From: Escherichia coli | GTDB lineage: Bacteria; Pseudomonadota; Gammaproteobacteria; Enterobacterales; Enterobacteriaceae | Direction: 5' to 3' (one strand) | Length of the DNA stretch: 64,000 bases | Assembly (NCBI RefSeq): GCF_003334315.1 | Contig: NZ_QOWR01000024.1 | Shown: piece after piece, positions 3,056-26,954 of the stretch | Layout: each line of letters opens with the position of its first letter | Numbering within the stretch: position 1 is the first letter of the stretch | Notes under the pieces: generated by a model | Seen by the model: the letters and a program-made list of their open reading frames with translations, nothing else | What the model was told of the DNA's origin: nothing | Databases searched by the model: none | Made by a program: the position numbers and the translations under genes

Positions 3056-4618
3056 ATGAACTCGTTTTCACTTCTGACAACCCCGTGGTTGCCCGTTCGT
3101 TTTAAAGACGGAACGACAGGCAAACTGGCGCCAGTCGATCTGGCGGATGAAAATGTTGTCGATATTTCTGCGCCGCGGGCAGATCTCCAGGGTGCGGTAT
3201 GGCAGTTTTTGCTGGGGCTACTACAAACCAGCTTCGCGCCAAAAGATCATCGTCGTTGGGATGATATCTGGGAAGACGGACTGGAAGCTGAAAAGCTACG
3301 GGAAGCATTGCAGTCATTAGAACATGCTTTCCAGTTTGGGCCAGATTCCCCTTCATTTATGCAGGATTTCGAGGCGCTCACCGGAGATAAAGTTCCGGTC
3401 GCTTCGCTACTGCCTGAGATTCCCGGCGCTCAAACAACGAAGTTTAATAAAGACCACTTTATCAAGCGTGGTGTAACGGAATACCTGTGCCCACATTGTT
3501 CTGCGTTAGCTCTGTTCTCCCTACAGTTGAATGCGCCGTCAGGTGGCAAAGGCTACCGCACCGGTTTACGCGGCGGTGGGCCGATGACCACTCTGATTGA
3601 ATTACAGGAATATCAGGGTAATCAACAAACTCCCTTGTGGCGCAAACTGTGGATCAATGTCATGCCGCAGGATGAAGCCGATTTACCGCTACCCAAAAAA
3701 TTTGACGATCTGGTTTTCCCCTGGCTTGGCCCGACGCGCACCAGCGAACTGGCCGGTGCGGTGGTAACCGATGAGCAGGTCAATAAACTCCAGGCGTACT
3801 GGGGAATGCCTCGCCGTATTCGTATTGATTTTAATACCACGACAGTCGGCAACTGCGATATTTGCGGTGAGCAGAGCGACGCGCTCCTGAGCCTGATGAC
3901 GACCAAAAATTACGGTGCGAATTATGCCATGTGGCAGCATCCCTTAACGCCTTACCGTGTACCACTTAAAGAGGGTGGCGAGTTTTACTCCGTTAAACCA
4001 CAACCGGGCGGTTTAATCTGGCGTGACTGGTTAGGCCTTATCGAAACGGGTAAATCAGAAAACAATACGGAACTTCCCGCGCTGGTGGTGAAACTCTTCA
4101 ATGCCAGCAGTCTCAAGCAGGCAAAAGTGGGCCTGTGGGGATTTGGCTATGATTTCGACAACATGAAAGCGCGCTGTTGGTACGAACACCATTTCCCGCT
4201 GCTGCTCGATAAAAAAGAAGGTCAGATACCGAAGCTGCGGCTGGCTGCGCAAACAGCTTCACGGATTCTAAGTCTGTTACGGAGTGCATTGAAAGAAGCA
4301 TGGTTCTCCGATCCAAAAGGTGCAAGGGGTGATTTTAGTTTTGTGGATATCGACTTCTGGAACAAAACTCAGCATCGCTTTCTGAGGTTAGTGCGCCAAA
4401 TTGAAGAAGGTCAGGATGCGGATGAATTACTCAGCAAATGGAATAAGGAAATTTGGTTATTCGCACGTCAGGATTTTGACGAGCGTGTATTCACCAATCC
4501 TTATGAGCCCGTTGATCTGGAACGCGTCATGACCGCGCGCAAGAAATATTTTACAACATCGGCGGAGAAGCAAAGTGCTAAAGCCGCCAGGGAGAAAAAG
4601 CAGGAGGCTGCTGAATGA
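3056..4618 (+). CDS. cse1: Cse1 (CasA) Cascade large subunit, about 520 aa
   Basis: First gene after cas3 in a I-E operon; start placed at MNSFSLLTTPWLPVRF by analogy with the CasA N-terminus (MNLLIDNWIPVRP) and a GAGG RBS at 3046-3049. The ORF track begins earlier at 2987, and an ATG at 3050 is an alternative. Confidence 0.8.
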   Translation: MNSFSLLTTPWLPVRFKDGTTGKLAPVDLADENVVDISAPRADLQGAVWQFLLGLLQTSFAPKDHRRWDDIWEDGLEAEKLREALQSLEHAFQFGPDSPSFMQDFEALTGDKVPVASLLPEIPGAQTTKFNKDHFIKRGVTEYLCPHCSALALFSLQLNAPSGGKGYRTGLRGGGPMTTLIELQEYQGNQQTPLWRKLWINVMPQDEADLPLPKKFDDLVFPWLGPTRTSELAGAVVTDEQVNKLQAYWGMPRRIRIDFNTTTVGNCDICGEQSDALLSLMTTKNYGANYAMWQHPLTPYRVPLKEGGEFYSVKPQPGGLIWRDWLGLIETGKSENNTELPALVVKLFNASSLKQAKVGLWGFGYDFDNMKARCWYEHHFPLLLDKKEGQIPKLRLAAQTASRILSLLRSALKEAWFSDPKGARGDFSFVDIDFWNKTQHRFLRLVRQIEEGQDADELLSKWNKEIWLFARQDFDERVFTNPYEPVDLERVMTARKKYFTTSAEKQSAKAAREKKQEAAE

Positions 4619-19515: not shown

Positions 19516-20154
19516 ATGAGTCAGAATACGCTGAAAGTTCATGATTTAAATGAAGATGCGGAATTTGATGAGAACGGAGTTGAGGTTTTTGACGAAAAGG
19601 CCTTAGTAGAAGAGGAACCCAGTGATAACGATTTGGCCGAAGAGGAACTGTTATCGCAGGGAGCCACACAGCGTGTGTTGGACGCGACTCAGCTTTACCT
19701 TGGTGAGATTGGTTATTCACCACTGTTAACGGCCGAAGAAGAAGTTTATTTTGCGCGTCGCGCACTGCGTGGAGATGTCGCCTCTCGCCGCCGGATGATC
19801 GAGAGTAACTTGCGTCTGGTGGTAAAAATTGCCCGCCGTTATGGCAATCGTGGTCTGGCGTTGCTGGACATCCTGGCCGATGAAAAAGAGAACGGTCCGG
19901 AAGATACCACGCAAGATGACGATATGAAGCAGAGCATCGTCAAATGGCTGTTCGAGCTGAACGCCAAACAGCGTGAAGTGCTGGCACGTCGATTCGGTTT
20001 GCTGGGGTACGAAGCGGCAACACTGGAAGATGTAGGTCGTGAAATTGGCCTCACCCGTGAACGTGTTCGCCAGATTCAGGTTGAAGGCCTGCGCCGTTTG
20101 CGCGAAATCCTGCAAACGCAGGGGCTGAATATCGAAGCGCTGTTCCGCGAGTAA
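19516..20154 (+). CDS. rpoS: RpoS (sigma-S/sigma-38) allele with an in-frame internal deletion: 212 aa instead of about 330
   Basis: N-terminal ([14 protein letters not shown]...[12 protein letters not shown]) and C-terminal ([13 protein letters not shown]...[10 protein letters not shown]) parts match RpoS, but the central part (regions 2.2-3) is absent; junction at the direct-repeat sequence GCGTTGCTGGAC (19858-19869). Confidence 0.85.
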
Positions 20155-20171
20155 GTAAGCATCTGTCAGAA

Positions 20172-20200
20172 AGGCCAGTCTCAAGCGAGGCTGGCCTTTT
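20172..20200 (+). terminator. Rho-independent terminator downstream of rpoS
   Basis: GC-rich imperfect hairpin (ggccagtctc...gaggctggcc) followed by TTTT. Confidence 0.7.
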
Positions 20201-20211
20201 CTGTGCACAAT

Positions 20212-20243
20212 AAAAGGTCCGATGCCCATCGGACCTTTTTATT
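20212..20243. terminator. Bidirectional intrinsic terminator between rpoS and ygbN
   Basis: Perfect hairpin ggtccgatg-ccc-catcggacc flanked by an A-run and a T-run. Confidence 0.7.
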
Positions 20244-20247
20244 AAGG

Positions 20248-21612
20248 TCAAATTACCGCCCATACGCACCAGGTAATTAAGAATCCGGTAAAACCGAGAA
20301 TGGTCGTTAACACTGTCCAGGTTTTCAGACCGTCTGCTACCGACAACCCCAGATATTTGGTCACAATCCAGAACCCTGAGTCATTAATATGTGACGCACC
20401 AAGCCCACCAAAGCAGGCTGCCAGCGTCACCAATACGCACTGAATCGGATTCAATCCCATCACCGCTTCTGAGAGTAACCCGCCGGTTGTCAGTATTGCT
20501 ACGGTTGCTGACCCCTGCGATGCACGCAGCGCCAGTGAAATAATAAATGCGGCTGGTAACAGAGGCAGGTCAATCATTTGTAGCATGTTGGCAAGGGCTT
20601 TGCCGACGCCCGATTCCACCAGCACTTTGCCAAATACCCCTCCAGCACCAGTAACCAAAATCACTACCGCCGCAGTGGGAAGGGCTGAGCCCATAATGTC
20701 GCTGGTGTGTTGTAAGCTCCAGCCGCGACGTAAAGCCAATAACCAGAATGCCAGCACCAGCGCAATCATTAGAGCTACCATTGGTGAGCCGATCAGCTGT
20801 AGCGTACCAAGCAGGGGATGCGAAGGCGGCATCAGTGTTGCGGAAACCGTACCCGCCATGATAATCGCGATAGGAATAACAATTAGCGAGGTGACCAGCG
20901 CGACGCCCGGTGGATTTATTTTATCGCTTAATTTTGTCGCGCCTTCCTCACTGGCCGGAGCCAGTTGCATCTGTTCCAGTACTTCCACCGACATCGCATA
21001 TTGGTGCTTATTGATTATTTTCGCTGCAAAGTAGCCAACAATCCCTACGGGAATAGAAATCGCAATACCGATGATGGTTAGCCAGCCGATGTCTGCGTGG
21101 AGTAACCCCGCTGCGGCGACAGGGCCTGGATGCGGCGGTACCGCCACATGTACAGTTAGCATGATCCCAGCGACAGGCAGGCCAAATTTGAGTGGCGATA
21201 TTTTGGCAACCTTGGCAAAACCGTAAATGATTGGCGCAAGAATAATAAAGCCGACATCAAAGAAGACGGGAATACCGAGGAAGAACGCTGCCAGAGTCAG
21301 CGCAGCGATAGTTCGTTTGTCACCTAACTTGCGACTGAAATAATTAGCCAGTGACTCTGCACCACCAGAGTGTTCGATCATACGCCCCAGCATAGCGCCC
21401 AGACCAATAATAATAGTGACGGAACCAAGCACACCGCCCATCCCGGCGATCATCACTTTACCCACTTCGCCCGCCGGTATACCCGCCGCAAGTGCGACTA
21501 ACAGGCTGACGAGGAGCAGAGCAACGAATGGTTGTACCTTTGCCTTGATGACCAGCAGCAACAGCATGATTACGCCAGCTAACGCAATGCATAACAATGT
21601 AATTGTGGACAT
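20248..21612 (-). CDS. ygbN: GntP-family acid-sugar permease YgbN (454 aa)
   Basis: Polytopic membrane protein with gluconate-permease-like sequence; last gene of the ygbJKLMN cluster. Confidence 0.9.
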   Translation of the reverse strand: MSTITLLCIALAGVIMLLLLVIKAKVQPFVALLLVSLLVALAAGIPAGEVGKVMIAGMGGVLGSVTIIIGLGAMLGRMIEHSGGAESLANYFSRKLGDKRTIAALTLAAFFLGIPVFFDVGFIILAPIIYGFAKVAKISPLKFGLPVAGIMLTVHVAVPPHPGPVAAAGLLHADIGWLTIIGIAISIPVGIVGYFAAKIINKHQYAMSVEVLEQMQLAPASEEGATKLSDKINPPGVALVTSLIVIPIAIIMAGTVSATLMPPSHPLLGTLQLIGSPMVALMIALVLAFWLLALRRGWSLQHTSDIMGSALPTAAVVILVTGAGGVFGKVLVESGVGKALANMLQMIDLPLLPAAFIISLALRASQGSATVAILTTGGLLSEAVMGLNPIQCVLVTLAACFGGLGASHINDSGFWIVTKYLGLSVADGLKTWTVLTTILGFTGFLITWCVWAVI

Positions 21613-21700
21613 GGGAAACCCTGTCTGAAAGTTATAGTTAACCTACCCCATCCGTAGATGGGGGGATGTATGGGTACGTTGTAATTAGGGATTTAACGAA

Positions 21701-22477
21701 TTAGCGCCAGGCGTCAAACCAGCCAAGCCCTTCTTCGGTGAGGCCACGAGGTTTATATTCACAACCGATCCAGCCCTGATATCCCACCTCATCGAACAGG
21801 CGGAACAGCCACGGATAGTTGATTTCTCCATCGTCCGGTTCATGTCGATCAGGTAGTCCGGCAATTTGTACGTGCGCATATTTCCCGGCGTAGTCGCGGA
21901 TTAAATGCGTCAGGTTGCCATCTACTTTTTGCGCATGAAAAGTATCTAGTTGAATAAACACGTTATCTCGCGCAACCTCTTCAACAATAGCCAGTGCCTG
22001 ATACTGGCTGGAGAAGAGATAATGAGGCTTAACGTCGGGGCTGAGTGCTTCAACTAATATTCGCTTGCCGTGTAGCGCAAAGCGGTCGGCAGCGTAGCGG
22101 AGATTATCGATAAATACTGCCCGGTACCGTTCAGCGTCTTCGCCAGCGGGCACGACGCCTGCCATCACATGGACTTGTTCACAATTGAGCGCCAATGCAT
22201 ATTCCAGTGCCAGGTCGATGTCTGCGTGTGCTTCGTGCTCACGTCCGGGAAGGGCGGATAATCCCCATTCCCCCGCATTAATATCTCCGGGAGCGGTATT
22301 GAACAGCGCCAGTGTCAGATGGTTTTGCTCCAGTTGCTTTTGGATTTGCAGGGTGGAGTAGTCATAGGGAAACAGAAATTCCACAGCATCGAACCCGGCT
22401 TTTCGCGCTGCGGCGAAGCGTTCAATAAAAGGCACTTCGGTGAACATCATGGATAAATTAGCTGCAAAACGAGGCAT
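21701..22477 (-). CDS. ygbM: Xylose-isomerase-like TIM-barrel protein YgbM (2-oxo-tetronate isomerase, OtnI) (258 aa)
   Basis: Hydroxypyruvate-isomerase-like sequence; conserved cluster position. Confidence 0.85.
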
Positions 22478-22481
22478 TGCA

Positions 22482-23120
22482 TTAACTCCTTAATTCCGCA
22501 ATTTCACCTGCGGTCAGATAACGGATCGGGCGGTCACCGAGAATAAAAATCAGCTTTGCCGTTTCCTCCAGCTCTTCCATATTGTTGGCGGCTTCTTGCA
22601 GGCTTTCACCGCAAACCACTGGGCCATGATTTGCCAGTAAAAAAGCCTGATTGTCTGCTGCCAGTTCCGCCAGATCCTGTGCGATGCGTTTATCGCCCGG
22701 TCGGTAATAAGGCACCAGCGGGACATTTCCCATCCGCATCACCACGTATGGTGTGAACGGACGAATAACGTTGCTGCTGTCCAGCCCTTGCAGGCAGGAA
22801 AGCGCCGTCGACCATGTGCTGTGCAAATGCACCACCGCTTTACAACGCGGATTGTTGCGATACAGCGCCAGATGAAAGAGCACCTCTTTCGAGGGTTTGT
22901 CACCACTTAACCATTCGCCATCCGCGGCGACTTTGGAAAGCCGCTGCGGATCGAGATTGCCCAGGCATGAACCTGTCGGTGTCGCCAGTAAATTCCCGTC
23001 AGGTAAAAGCAGCGACAGATTGCCAGCCGAACCGGTTGCATAGCCGCGCTGAAAGAATGAACTGGCAATCCGCGTCATCTCCTCTCGCAAAGACTGCTCT
23101 ACTTTTGCGAAATCGCTCAT
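22482..23120 (-). CDS. ygbL: Class II aldolase/adducin-family protein YgbL (3-oxo-tetronate 4-phosphate decarboxylase, OtnC) (212 aa)
   Basis: Class II aldolase-like motifs (HLHS, ANHG); cluster position. Confidence 0.85.
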
Positions 23121-24379
23121 GATAAAAACTCTCTTTGGGCTCGTGAAAAAAAGGCGTCATCACCGAAGTTGCCAGATTTAAGGGCGAGTGAGACAGGCTT
23201 ATCCAGTGCGTTTACCCACGGCACGCCGGGGGAAATGGTTGGGCCAATATGAAACCCTTTTATGCCCAGGCTCTGTGTGACTACGCCGGAGGTCTCACCG
23301 CCTGCGACAATAAAGCGTGCCACGCCTTCCGCCGCTAACCGCGCCGCTAGTTGAGAAAACAGTGTTTCTACTGCCTGACTGGCTTTTTGTGCACCGTATT
23401 GCTGTTGAATTGCTGCCAATGCGTCAGTGCTGGCGGTGGCAAAAACCAGTGGAGCAAGTACACTTTCCTGGCCCAGAACCCACTCTGCCAGTTCGTGTGC
23501 ATAAGTGGCCAGAGTTTCAGTTGAGAGGCAGCGTGCCACATCAACTTCACGGGCTGGTGCAATTTGACGGTAATGTGCTACCTGGCGGTTGGTCATTTGA
23601 GAGCATGAACCGGAGAGCACTACGCCGCGCCCAGCGAGCGGATGCCCTGCTTCGCGAGCCTGGTTACCGTTTTCTTGCGTCCACTGCCGGGCCAGGCCAA
23701 TCGCCAGACCAGAACCGCCCGTTACCAGTGGGGCATCGCGCAAGGCTTCTCCCTGAATTTCCAGATGGTGTTCGGTCAGCGCATCAAGCACCGCGTAGCG
23801 GTAGCCCTCTTGCTGTAAGCGAGCCAGCTCTTGACGAACGGCATCCACACCTTGTTCGAAAACATGTGCCGAAACGACGCCGCAGCGCCCTGTGGATTGC
23901 GCTTCAACCAGACGGGGAAGATAGCTGTCGGTCATGGGATTTACCGGGTGATGGCGCATCCCGGATTCGGCCAGCAGTTGATTCATTACGAACAAATACC
24001 CCTGATAAACCGTACGTCCGTTGACCGGCAGGGCCGGAGAGAAGACCGTAAACGGCGTGTCGAGAGCATCCATTAATGCATCGGTAACCGGGCCGATATT
24101 ACCTTTAGCCGTACTGTCGAAAGTAGAGCAGTATTTGAAATAGATCTGTTTGCAACCTTGCTGTTGCAACCAGCTCAGAGCCGCCAGCGATTGCTGTGTG
24201 GCTTCAACCACCGGACAGGAACGCGTTTTCAGGCTGATCACCAGTGCGTCGATTGCTTCCGGCATTTTACCTGTTGGAACACCGTTAATTTGTACCGTTG
24301 GTAGACCGTTTTCCACCAGAAAACTGGCGATATCCGTTGCGCCGGTAAAATCATCGGCGATAACGCCAATCTTGATCAT
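23117..24379 (-). CDS. ygbK: DUF1537-family four-carbon acid-sugar kinase YgbK (3-oxo-tetronate kinase, OtnK) (420 aa)
   Basis: N-terminal IADDFTGA motif typical of DUF1537 kinases; 4-nt overlaps with both neighbours. Confidence 0.85.
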   Translation of the reverse strand: MIKIGVIADDFTGATDIASFLVENGLPTVQINGVPTGKMPEAIDALVISLKTRSCPVVEATQQSLAALSWLQQQGCKQIYFKYCSTFDSTAKGNIGPVTDALMDALDTPFTVFSPALPVNGRTVYQGYLFVMNQLLAESGMRHHPVNPMTDSYLPRLVEAQSTGRCGVVSAHVFEQGVDAVRQELARLQQEGYRYAVLDALTEHHLEIQGEALRDAPLVTGGSGLAIGLARQWTQENGNQAREAGHPLAGRGVVLSGSCSQMTNRQVAHYRQIAPAREVDVARCLSTETLATYAHELAEWVLGQESVLAPLVFATASTDALAAIQQQYGAQKASQAVETLFSQLAARLAAEGVARFIVAGGETSGVVTQSLGIKGFHIGPTISPGVPWVNALDKPVSLALKSGNFGDDAFFSRAQREFLS

Positions 24380-25284
24380 GATTTCGCTCCCGGTAGAGTG
24401 ATGCCAGAGAAAATCTTGATAACTGCGCTATCGTCTTCTTTCCCGTAACCCGCGTTACTGGCGCTGGTGAACATATTCAATGCTGTTGAGGCCAATGGCA
24501 GCGGGAAGTGCAGGGCTTTGGCTGTATCGGCAACCAGGCCAAGATCCTTAACAAAAATATCGACGGCTGAATGCGGGGTGTAATCGCCATCCACCACATG
24601 ACGCATCCGGTTTTCGAACATCCAGGAATTTCCGGCGGCATTGGTCACGACGTCATACATCACATCCAGCGGGATCCCCGCACGGGCTGCAAGTGCCATC
24701 GCTTCGGCTCCGGCAGCAATATGTACGCCCGCTAACAACTGGTGAATAATTTTTACGGTCGAACCTAGTCCCGGTTCTGCACCTATGCGATAAACTTTTC
24801 CGGCAACGGCTTCCAGCACGGGTGCCAGTCGTTCAAAGGCAATATCGCTACCGGAGGCCATGACAGTCATTTCACCGTTAGCGGCTTTTACTGCACCACC
24901 AGAAACTGGCGCATCCAGCATTTCCAGATCGAATCCAGCCAGAGCGGTAGCAATTTCTTGCGCATCAGCACTAGCGATAGTGGAAGAAACCATTACTGCC
25001 GTACCGGGTTTCAGATGTTGTGCAACGCCTGTTTCACCAAACAGCACCTGTTTAACCTGGGCCGCATTGACCACCAGCACCAGCAGAGCGTCCAGTTTTT
25101 CGGCAAACGTCGCGGCGTTATCAGAAACCCCGCAAGCACCTGCCTCTTTCAACGTAGCGCAGGCATTGCTGTTCAGGTCTGCGCCCCAGGTAGAAAGACC
25201 TGCGCGGACACATGACAGTGCTGCTCCCATTCCCATTGACCCTAAGCCAACGATACCGACATGAAACTCAGATCCCGTTTTCAT
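24376..25284 (-). CDS. ygbJ: NAD-dependent 3-hydroxyisobutyrate-dehydrogenase-family enzyme YgbJ (L-threonate dehydrogenase, LtnD) (302 aa)
   Basis: Rossmann motif GIVGLGSMGMGAA at the N-terminus; first gene of the operon. Confidence 0.88.
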   Translation of the reverse strand: MKTGSEFHVGIVGLGSMGMGAALSCVRAGLSTWGADLNSNACATLKEAGACGVSDNAATFAEKLDALLVLVVNAAQVKQVLFGETGVAQHLKPGTAVMVSSTIASADAQEIATALAGFDLEMLDAPVSGGAVKAANGEMTVMASGSDIAFERLAPVLEAVAGKVYRIGAEPGLGSTVKIIHQLLAGVHIAAGAEAMALAARAGIPLDVMYDVVTNAAGNSWMFENRMRHVVDGDYTPHSAVDIFVKDLGLVADTAKALHFPLPLASTALNMFTSASNAGYGKEDDSAVIKIFSGITLPGAKS

Positions 25285-25365
25285 CTGCTCTCCTTGTTAA
25301 TTTAAGTGATATTTTGTTTGATATTGTGAATATAAGCGCTGGAAGATAACGATATGGTGAGCTGA

Positions 25366-25402
25366 TTCACATAAATTAACATTGTGTGTTATTTTATGTG
25401 AA
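25366..25402. promoter_or_regulatory. Candidate operator (inverted repeat) in the ygbJ-ygbI divergent promoter region
   Basis: TTCACATAAA (25366-25375) and its reverse complement TTTATGTGAA (25393-25402), 17 bp apart, in the intergenic region between the DeoR-family regulator gene and the operon. Confidence 0.35.
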
Positions 25403-25479
25403 CTAAGCGTTAGTTGCGCCGCGCACGTTTCGCAGGCAAATAGCGTAGAATGTCAGCAGGACAAAGGAAGGAGCAAAAG

Positions 25480-26247
25480 TTGATACCCGTAGAGCGTCGC
25501 CAAATCATCCTTGAGATGGTAGCTGAAAAAGGCATTGTCAGTATTGCTGAACTAACGGACAGAATGAATGTGTCACATATGACCATTCGTCGGGATTTAC
25601 AAAAACTGGAGCAGCAGGGAGCCGTTGTGCTGGTGTCCGGAGGCGTCCAGTCTCCGGGACGCGTGGCGCATGAACCTTCTCATCAGGTAAAAACTGCGCT
25701 GGCAATGACGCAAAAAGCGGCTATTGGCAAGCTGGCGGCAAATCTTGTTCAGCCGGGAAGTTGTATCTATCTGGATGCGGGAACGACCACGTTAGCGATA
25801 GCACAGCATCTGATTCACATGGAGTCACTGACTGTGGTCACAAACGATTTCGTTATTGCAGACTACTTGCTCGACAACAGTAATTGCACAATTATTCACA
25901 CTGGCGGTGCAGTGTGTCGGGAAAACCGTTCCTGTGTCGGGGAAGCCGCTGCGACCATGCTGCGCAGCCTGATGATTGATCAGGCTTTTATTTCTGCATC
26001 GTCATGGAGTGTGCGGGGGATTTCTACGCCAGCGGAAGATAAAGTCACGGTGAAACGGGCGATTGCCAGTGCCAGCCGCCAGCGAGTTTTGGTCTGTGAT
26101 GCGACGAAATATGGTCAGGTGGCGACATGGCTGGCGTTACCATTAAGCGAGTTTGATCAGATTATCACAGACGACGGTTTGCCGGAGAGTGCCAGTCGCG
26201 CGCTGGCGAAGCAGGATCTCTCTTTGCTGGTAGCGAAAAATGAATAA
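25480..26247 (+). CDS. ygbI: DeoR-family transcriptional regulator YgbI (255 aa, probable TTG start)
   Basis: HTH (IAELTDRMNVSHMTIRRDL) plus sugar-binding domain; strong RBS aggaaggag 7 nt before the TTG at 25480. The track ORF starts at the ATG at 25450, which has no comparable RBS. Confidence 0.85.
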   Translation: MIPVERRQIILEMVAEKGIVSIAELTDRMNVSHMTIRRDLQKLEQQGAVVLVSGGVQSPGRVAHEPSHQVKTALAMTQKAAIGKLAANLVQPGSCIYLDAGTTTLAIAQHLIHMESLTVVTNDFVIADYLLDNSNCTIIHTGGAVCRENRSCVGEAAATMLRSLMIDQAFISASSWSVRGISTPAEDKVTVKRAIASASRQRVLVCDATKYGQVATWLALPLSEFDQIITDDGLPESASRALAKQDLSLLVAKNE

Positions 26248-26270
26248 TGGCCTGCAATAACATTTGGTTA

Positions 26271-26296
26271 CTCATGCTTCACAGAAGAAGCATGAG
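26271..26296. terminator. Convergent-gene hairpin between ygbI and pphB
   Basis: Perfect 10-bp inverted repeat ctcatgcttc-acagaa-gaagcatgag, followed by actactttatttta. Confidence 0.6.
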
Positions 26297-26297
26297 A

Positions 26298-26954
26298 CTA
26301 CTTTATTTTATAAAATGACAGCCGCCCGCTTTTCGGCGTGCCGGTATCAATATAAATCTGGTTAGCGAACGTCTGAATGTTATCAAACATCATATGTCCA
26401 AATATAAAATAATCAGCGCCGTTTATTTGTTGTAACTCGCCATTAAGCGATTTCTGCACACGATCAACAGGCCAGAGTAATTCGCTTTCTGCTATTTCTT
26501 TACCAAACTGATATTCATCACCCGGATAATCTGCATGTGCGATGGCATATTTTATGTTGTCATTAATGATTTCAATAATATGTGGAAGGTGATGGAATTT
26601 CAGCAACAGATCTATTGCCTCTTGTTGCTCTGAATCATTTAAATCGAAAAACCAGTCACCACCGCTGGCAAGCCACATATTTCCATCGCCAGTTTCGAAT
26701 GCATCCAACGCCATCGCTTCGTGGTTGCCTTTAACCGACGTAAACCAGGGTTGGTTTAGCAGGCGCAGCACGTTAAGACTCTTCGGCCCACGATCAATAT
26801 TATCGCCGACAGAAATAAGTAAGTCGATTTCGGGGAAAAAAGAGAGTTGATGTAAGCGGGATTGTAATAACTGATATTCACCATGAATATCACCAACGAC
26901 CCATATATGGCGATAGTGATGGGCATTGATTTTTTGATAGCGTGTAGATGGCAT
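26298..26954 (-). CDS. pphB: Serine/threonine protein phosphatase 2 PphB (218 aa)
   Basis: Metallophosphoesterase motifs (GDIHG, GDNIDRG, GNHE). Confidence 0.92.
   Translation of the reverse strand: MPSTRYQKINAHHYRHIWVVGDIHGEYQLLQSRLHQLSFFPEIDLLISVGDNIDRGPKSLNVLRLLNQPWFTSVKGNHEAMALDAFETGDGNMWLASGGDWFFDLNDSEQQEAIDLLLKFHHLPHIIEIINDNIKYAIAHADYPGDEYQFGKEIAESELLWPVDRVQKSLNGELQQINGADYFIFGHMMFDNIQTFANQIYIDTGTPKSGRLSFYKIK

Follow-up and report, generated by a model that had tools for sequence, protein, structure and literature searches.

How is expression of the ygbJKLMN operon controlled? The question is raised by a 64,000-nt stretch of Escherichia coli DNA (assembly GCF_003334315.1, contig NZ_QOWR01000024.1; hereafter the window), which carries at positions 20248-26247 the five genes of this operon together with the divergent gene for its DeoR-family regulator, YgbI. 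An earlier note on the window had pointed to an inverted repeat between ygbJ and ygbI as a plausible YgbI operator, and had called the regulation of the cluster poorly characterised. The latter statement needs qualifying, as published work and the RefSeq annotation already cover the gene cluster, the repressor YgbI and a CRP site: chromatin immunoprecipitation with exonuclease digestion (ChIP-exo) and RNA-seq have been published for YgbI (PMC8464067), and so has the CRP site (PMC12871828). No YgbI binding motif was given in the literature searched.

Previous work thus established that YgbI represses the operon and binds the spacer between ygbJ and ygbI in vivo, and that CRP binds it in vitro. 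To this we add the conservation, the phasing and the excess of a sequence motif in the same spacer. On this evidence we consider it likely that a composite YgbI operator is built into a class II CRP-dependent ygbJ promoter of the known L-threonate operon.

A palindrome and related units in the ygbJ-ygbI spacer

The repeat reported earlier, TTCACATAAA (25366-25375) and TTTATGTGAA (25393-25402) with 17 nt between them, is present exactly, and a repeat search extended it to 16-nt arms (25366-25381 and 25387-25402) that are complementary at 15 of 16 positions and separated by 5 nt. It is therefore better described as a 37-bp palindrome occupying 25366-25402. When the 195-bp spacer was put through 2000 dinucleotide shuffles, perfect arms of at least 10 nt (spacer up to 40 nt) appeared 13 times, and 16-nt arms with 15/16 complementarity did not appear at all (0/2000); the inverted repeat is non-random. 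The same repeat search revealed a third copy of the arm at 25295-25309, adjoining the ribosome-binding site of ygbJ.

These copies belong to an array whose 15-bp units each combine two TGTKA pentamers spaced by one helical turn (consensus TGTTAATTTWTGTGA). We scored the units with a 15-nt position weight matrix trained only on A1 (25295-25309) and B (25367-25381, reverse strand), which has the consensus TGTTAATTTTTGTGA, and we number them from the predicted ygbJ promoter described below. A1 (TGTTAATTTAAGTGA, 25295-25309, + strand) scores 22.8 bits and would lie at +14 to +28. A2 (TGTTTGATATTGTGA, 25315-25329, + strand) is a degenerate unit that scores below 8 bits in E. coli; it lies 20 bp from A1, that is two 10-bp steps of the pentamer array, and overlaps the predicted -10 and +1 (-7 to +8). 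B (25367-25381, - strand; reverse complement TGTTAATTTATGTGA) is the left arm of the palindrome, scores 23.0 bits and overlaps a CRP half-site (-45 to -59), and C (TGTTATTTTATGTGA, 25387-25401, + strand) is the right arm (-65 to -79), found by the matrix without training on C. The palindrome, composed of B and C, is most likely half of a composite YgbI operator, and the operator is thus probably larger than the repeat first noticed.

Conservation of the array in twelve species

The E. coli spacer was compared with those of 11 other species or loci, namely E. albertii, Salmonella, Entomohabitans, Scandinavium, a locus designated L008, Serratia, Yersinia massiliensis, Pectobacterium, Dickeya, Citrobacter portucalensis and Pantoea, whose YgbI proteins are 96% to 62% identical to that of E. 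coli. A contig search with YgbI gave four loci, and homologous proteins and the contigs encoding them gave nine more. Across these 12 enterobacterial species A1, A2, B, the -10 box TATATT and the CRP site keep both their sequence and their spacing. The invariant columns cluster: TGT.A at 25295 and GT at 25306-25307 in A1, TGTT at 25315-25318 and TGT.A at 25325-25329 in A2, with pentamer starts at 25295, 25305, 25315 and 25325 in exact 10-bp phase. Also invariant are 25334, 25333 and 25329, corresponding to the T, the A and the final T of TATATT on the ygbJ strand, then G25357, G25359 and TCACA at 25367-25371, which belong to GGTGA-N6-TCACA, and finally T25377 and ACA at 25379-25381. No indel separates the -10 box from TCACA in any of the species, and the intervening sequence varies freely. 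The left palindrome arm (B) is conserved in 12/12 species, and so is the distance of 72-73 bp between A1 and B, which are inverted copies of each other.

C behaves differently from the other units. The matrix recovers it in E. coli, E. albertii, Salmonella, Entomohabitans, Scandinavium and L008, and it is absent from the six distant species. In those six, matrix sites instead follow directly after the ygbI -10 box (TAAAAT-TCACAAT..TTATCA), which suggests that YgbI autoregulates ygbI in them. Overall, the matrix matched the spacers 15 times per kb, compared with 0.09 times per kb in 135 kb of flanking DNA. The E. coli spacer contains three matches of at least 15 bits, while among 5000 shuffles of it five had any such match and none had more than one.

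A second full module was found in Yersinia massiliensis (3960-4160 of locus L010), comprising B, the CRP half-sites, a -10 box (TAGATT), A2 and A1 with 73-bp spacing. It lies beside ygbI, upstream of genes for a major facilitator superfamily (MFS) transporter and an epimerase/dehydrogenase-family protein. This copy is about 75 nt further from the start codon of the MFS gene, which points to transcription, and not translation, as the process on which the module acts. A conserved RNA element in the 5' untranslated region, which we had also considered, is unsupported for the same reason, and an Rfam search of 20000-26400 returned nothing relevant (one sub-threshold match to a Streptococcus small RNA). 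In the same species the divergent operon begins with ygbK instead of ygbJ; with the second module, this means that the local regulon is organised differently there.

The earlier suggestion that the repeat is a YgbI operator is therefore strengthened, both by the phylogenetic footprinting and by the recurrence of the 15-mer at the ygbJ start and at ygbI promoters. One further match to the matrix (TGTGAATAATTGTGC, 11.3 bits, 25886-25900, - strand) falls inside ygbI at the same codon positions in five species, and is probably coding conservation, not a site.

The predicted ygbJ promoter and the mapped ygbI promoter

Taking the conserved TATATT (25329-25334, - strand; invariant T-12, A-11 and T-7) as the -10 box of ygbJ would place the transcription start at A 25322, and the CRP site GGTGAgctgatTCACA (25356-25371) would then be centred at -41.5, the geometry of a class II site. 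The -35 region of this predicted promoter is poor. The site reads GGTGA-N6-TCACA as against TGTGA-N6-TCACA, and its sequence is not new to the literature: among the new high-affinity CRP sites in a Footprint-seq preprint (2026) is taTGTGAatcagaTCACCata at ygbI/ygbJ, bound in vitro with a dissociation constant of 8.4 nM (PMC12871828). We located taTGTGAatcagaTCACCata in K-12, where it is this same site. Neither a mapped ygbJ transcription start nor crp-mutant expression data were found in the literature searched.

For ygbI the start has been mapped, 21 nt upstream of the shorter of two possible reading frames, with 'CGTAGAAT' as the -10 region (PMC2760140). In the window this promoter corresponds to 25446-25459 on the + strand, with the -10 box TAGAAT at 25446-25451 and the transcription start at about 25459. 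The ygbI reading frame can begin at ATG 25450 (265 aa), which the earlier note had used. As the mapped transcription start lies downstream of that ATG and RefSeq uses TTG 25480 (255 aa), we replaced it with the latter, which is most likely the true start. The pair CGTAGAAT/CGTAAAAT is kept in seven of the 12 species: E. coli, E. albertii, Entomohabitans, Salmonella, L008, Serratia and Yersinia.

A model for YgbI and CRP at the ygbJ promoter

In the following scheme we infer the contacts between protein and units, the ygbJ start site, the looping and the inducer. The ygbJ promoter would be a class II CRP-dependent promoter, and YgbI, probably oligomeric because it is a DeoR-family protein, would occupy units A1, A2, B and C. 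With A2 and A1 covering -7 to +28 and B and C covering about -45 to -79, YgbI would block RNA polymerase at the -10/+1 region and compete with CRP, B sharing its TGTGA with the upstream CRP half-site. That this pentamer is shared with a class II CRP site suggests anti-activation, and the fixed 72-73-bp inverted pair around the core promoter suggests a loop, in which YgbI, bound to the inverted units B and A1, might hold the 72 bp of core promoter that separate them. A pathway intermediate would release YgbI. By analogy with other members of the DeoR family, whose inducers are usually phosphorylated, this is probably 3-oxo-tetronate 4-phosphate. A phosphorylated inducer fits the behaviour of Brucella VdtR, for which L-threonate and D-erythronate, the free acids, induce in vivo but leave the protein bound in gel-shift assays (PMC10580937). 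The palindrome would have arisen in the Escherichia/Salmonella clade, when C took the place of the unit that covers the ygbI promoter.

If this is true, K-12, whose otnK (ygbK) is frameshifted, would make no phosphorylated inducer and its operon would stay off. An operon locked off in this way would explain its activation only through ygbI mutations, which raised ygbJKLMN expression in laboratory evolution on m-tartrate (PMC6452873). The complete set of novel elements, namely an undescribed four-unit operator, a B-A1 loop, CRP anti-activation, an autoregulatory unit replaced by C and a K-12 operon locked off, is put forward more tentatively, as possible rather than probable. What the scheme offers is a model of YgbI operator and ygbJ promoter, specified to the base pair, that can be tested; otherwise it adds little to a known system.

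Published binding data and alternative explanations

YgbI has been described as a 'single-target' repressor with one ChIP-exo peak, in the ygbJ-ygbI spacer, and RNA-seq of a ygbI deletion showed ygbJ, K, L, M and N raised by log2 5.6, 5.2, 5.1, 4.6 and 4.0 (16- to 47-fold) (PMC8464067). The peak is given as NC_000913.2 2859304-2859334 with a signal-to-noise ratio of 12.5 (PMC8464067 Dataset S3). An indel-free alignment and sequence identity place it at 25402-25432 of the window. In this mapping we assumed a coordinate offset of 1978 between NC_000913 versions.2 and.3.

Several points weigh against the operator that we propose. The ChIP-exo interval touches the outer base of the palindrome without covering it, so that the motif is not confirmed at the base-pair level; the ChIP-exo result is support at the level of the spacer, and neutral to mildly negative at that of the base pair. 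The ygbJ start is predicted only, and Shimada et al. chose other promoter hexamers, inside the palindrome (PMC3946193). The poor matrix score of A2 in E. coli means that its conservation could reflect promoter or discriminator constraints, and because TGTGA/TCACA resemble CRP half-sites, part of the conservation may belong to CRP and not to YgbI. Finally, Reg-Seq assigns YgbI sites at idnK (-48 to -27), leuABCD (-18 to +1) and the dicC promoter, and those at idnK and leuABCD do not resemble TGTTA-N5-TGTGA. Our scan of all three found no motif, idnK having only a single half-unit, CGTGAAATTAT. This absence gives no support either way, and it agrees with the single target seen by ChIP-exo. A 12.5-bit match, TGTCATTATTTGTGA, does occur in the K-12 idnD-idnK spacer (960-974 of locus L016), at -138 to -124 of idnK and outside the window mutagenised in Reg-Seq.

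Could the ChIP-exo interval itself be the true YgbI operator, with the large palindrome incidental? The segment 25402-25432 is GC-richer and holds a small palindrome (CTAA-GCG-TTAG); relative to the mapped ygbI start it spans -57 to -27. We regard this as very unlikely, however, as the segment is not conserved outside Escherichia, not even in Salmonella, whose YgbI is 87% identical and where the TGTTA-N5-TGTGA units are conserved, and as it cannot, without additional sites, explain a 16- to 47-fold repression at a promoter some 100 bp distant. Moreover, the edge of the peak meets the outer base of the palindrome, as it would if peak pairing had used just one of the exonuclease borders left by a large complex. 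Somewhat different is the possibility that the palindrome consists of two overlapping divergent sigma-70 promoters, with a TTCACA -35 on each strand and TATTTT and GTTAAT/TAATTT as -10 boxes. A promoter scan did find TTCACA-18-TATTTT with an extended -10 TG on the + strand, and Shimada et al. assigned TTCACA-18-TATTTT to ygbI and TTCACA-16-GTTAAT to ygbJ in a fragment selected with RNA polymerase by systematic evolution of ligands by exponential enrichment (PMC3946193). Yet the mapped ygbI start at about 25459, with its -10 TAGAAT, is about 57 bp downstream of the start that the palindrome promoter would give (PMC2760140), and 6 of the 12 species lack the right arm while retaining the left one, the CRP site and the -10 TATATT. 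Further copies of the 15-mer, at ygbI promoters and at +14 to +28, are in places where a -35 role is impossible. As an explanation of the palindrome this is therefore unlikely, although it is compatible with an operator, which may overlap weak promoters.

It is also conceivable that the TGTGA/TCACA pentamers are bound by CRP or by a different global factor, such as H-NS, and that YgbI binds elsewhere. GGTGA-N6-TCACA is a genuine in vitro CRP site (PMC12871828), and the spacer is AT-rich, with H-NS marked in it by Shimada et al. (PMC3946193). Against this, A1, B and C are direct repeats TGTTA-N5-TGTGA and not the inverted 5-6-5 arrangement that CRP needs, and TGTTA is invariant where CRP would prefer TGTGA. 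Outside ygbI-linked spacers the motif occurs, in addition, only at the MFS promoter next to ygbI, and in the distant species it lies over ygbI's own promoter, as expected of a local autoregulator. A global factor acting in place of YgbI hence appears highly improbable, and a composite YgbI operator remains our preferred explanation of the array.

The operon and its pathway

Gene identities were assigned with NCBIfam equivalog models and their curated cut-offs, which all six ygb proteins exceed. On the - strand, ygbJ/ltnD (24376-25284, 302 aa) encodes an L-threonate dehydrogenase, a member of the beta-hydroxyacid dehydrogenases matched over its full length by NF043037 (473.6 bits, cut-off 350), and ygbK/otnK (23117-24379) a 3-oxo-tetronate kinase in its intact 420-aa form (NF043035, 598.4 against 350; model positions 1-417 of 418). 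It is followed by ygbL/otnC (22482-23120, 212 aa), for a 3-oxo-tetronate 4-phosphate decarboxylase of class II aldolase fold (NF043034, 334.8 against 250), and ygbM/otnI (21701-22477, 258 aa), for a 2-oxo-tetronate isomerase with a TIM-barrel fold (NF043033 OxoTetrIsom, 395.4 against 325), whose Scandinavium ortholog carries Pfam AP_endonuc_2. The last gene, ygbN (20248-21612, 454 aa), encodes a GntP-family transporter (NF007332, 827 bits against 524) and is annotated under this name in E. coli genomes. On the + strand, ygbI (25480-26247) encodes the DeoR-family repressor, 255 aa from TTG (NF040890, 482.8 against 400); the match spans residues 11-263 of the 265-aa reading frame from ATG 25450, and YgbI orthologs carry PF08220 (HTH_DeoR) and PF00455 (DeoRC). 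The earlier assignments of the five operon proteins and the regulator, including their full length, are borne out by these models. YgbK, for which a search for DUF1537 had been suggested, has the Pfam domains SBD_N (4-228, E 7.5e-76) and NBD_C (253-411, E 3.9e-42), which we take to be the renamed halves of DUF1537; a placement of YgbK outside DUF1537, which the earlier note had named as a refutation, was thus not observed. YgbM is named 'HPr family phosphocarrier protein' by RefSeq and by NCBIfam NF007441 despite passing the isomerase equivalog, which looks like a mislabelled model name.

Together, the family assignments describe an L-threonate catabolic operon, ltnD-otnK-otnC-otnI plus a GntP transporter gene, with a divergent repressor gene. 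The pathway runs from L-threonate through 2-oxo-tetronate, 3-oxo-tetronate and 3-oxo-tetronate 4-phosphate to dihydroxyacetone phosphate and CO2. We base this chemistry on NCBIfam names, on PMC10580937 and on general knowledge, with enzyme identities at the level of sequence families. The earlier note had spoken of threonate and erythronate. The first is upheld by the L-threonate dehydrogenase equivalog, but no erythronate dehydrogenase (DenD) equivalog was among the NCBIfam hits of the cluster, nor does the cluster hold a gene of the PdxA-like family that had been listed for confirmation, and the pathway thus points to L-threonate specifically. No data on growth of E. coli on L-threonate were found in the literature searched.

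The 4-nt overlaps claimed for the operon hold at two of its four junctions, ygbJ/ygbK and ygbK/ygbL, both ATGA. Between ygbL and ygbM there is instead a gap of 4 nt, the Shine-Dalgarno sequence falling within the last part of ygbL, and ygbM and ygbN are separated by an 88-nt gap that contains a hairpin, CCCCATC-TACG-GATGGGG (21646-21663, - strand), with a 7-bp GC-rich stem and no T-run. A terminator scan found no convincing terminator in this gap or after ygbN. The hairpin may have to do with the weaker induction of ygbN (log2 3.95) compared with ygbM (4.62) in the ygbI deletion.

The frameshift of K-12 ygbK

The earlier description of the cluster as intact turned out to be meaningful. K-12 MG1655 lacks one base at window position 23228 (about 3786 of K-12 locus L005), so that its YgbK diverges at residue 385, stops at 388 and loses the end of the NBD_C domain, where the window form has 420 aa. 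This 1-nt deletion also accounts for the 91-bp ygbK-ygbL gap and for the split into 'ygbJK / ygbLM' operons in the K-12 annotation. At an identity of at least 99% the K-12 allele was present in 370 of 4581 genomes and the window allele in 2341, and the top matches listed for the K-12 allele were mostly laboratory strains derived from K-12. Because of the frameshift, K-12 may be incapable of running the pathway or of forming a phosphorylated inducer. The reference strain thus has a frameshifted otnK, whereas the window strain and most natural E. coli have an intact gene, which is relevant for testing L-threonate use in gut E. coli. L-threonate is a breakdown product of ascorbate.

Location and prevalence of the cluster

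The genes in the window run nlpD, rpoS, ygbN, ygbM, ygbL, ygbK, ygbJ, ygbI, pphB, mutS. Several annotated E. coli chromosomes match the 6-kb ygb stretch at 100% identity, and the cluster is present in 4603 of 5426 complete E. coli genomes (~85%); the whole cluster is absent from the other 823 (~15%). In Salmonella the neighbours of ygbI are a MarR-like gene and genes for UbiX/UbiD-like decarboxylases, adjoining rpoS, and the mutS-rpoS interval is therefore differently arranged in the two genera. A 9-kb contig labelled 'MAG: Oscillospiraceae bacterium UBG124' (RKCM01000024.1) encodes a YgbI 99% identical to that of E. coli, and is most likely an E. coli contig misbinned into an Oscillospiraceae metagenome-assembled genome.

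The neighbouring rpoS (19516-20154) carries a 354-bp in-frame deletion relative to K-12 and encodes 212 aa instead of 330. Its junction lies near 19857/19858, between two repeats coding for ALLD, and as roughly residues 114-231 are removed the allele is probably null. In strain HS30-1, whose ygb cluster is identical, rpoS has its full length, and none of the top database matches lacks the 354 bp.

Comparison with known systems

Among the closest known systems is that of K-12 itself (ygbI/ygbJKLMN, b2735-b2740; PMC8464067, PMC6452873), which has the same genes, gene order and spacer, the latter with two substitutions and no indels; the published work defines no YgbI binding motif. It differs from the window in its 388-aa otnK and 91-bp gap, as against 420 aa and a 4-nt overlap with otnC. 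The four-step L-threonate/D-erythronate pathway known for aldolase-DUF1537 clusters from Ralstonia eutropha H16 (cited in PMC10580937) has LtnD, OtnI, OtnK and OtnC in common with the window, but the window has no DenD equivalog among its NCBIfam hits and no PdxA-type gene, and a GntP-type transporter replaces the MFS one. In Brucella, the DeoR repressor VdtR controls an ltnD-otnK-otnI cluster and binds multiple sites at the ltnD promoter, its deletion causing more than 30-fold derepression (PMC10580937). There the repressor gene is inside the operon, whereas ygbI is divergent, and no CRP component has been reported.

The operator architecture appears undescribed, but it is of an ordinary DeoR-type design. 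DeoR itself binds a 16-bp palindrome, TGTTAGAATTCTAACA, at three operators with looping, and GlpR binds tandem 10-bp half-sites. The proposed ygb array resembles these operators in having several sites around a CRP-assisted catabolic promoter, in its TGTTA half-sites, in its 10-bp phasing and in a spacing suggestive of cooperative binding or looping. It differs from them in that its units, known here from their sequence, are direct pentamer repeats set in inverted pairs 20 bp and 72 bp apart.

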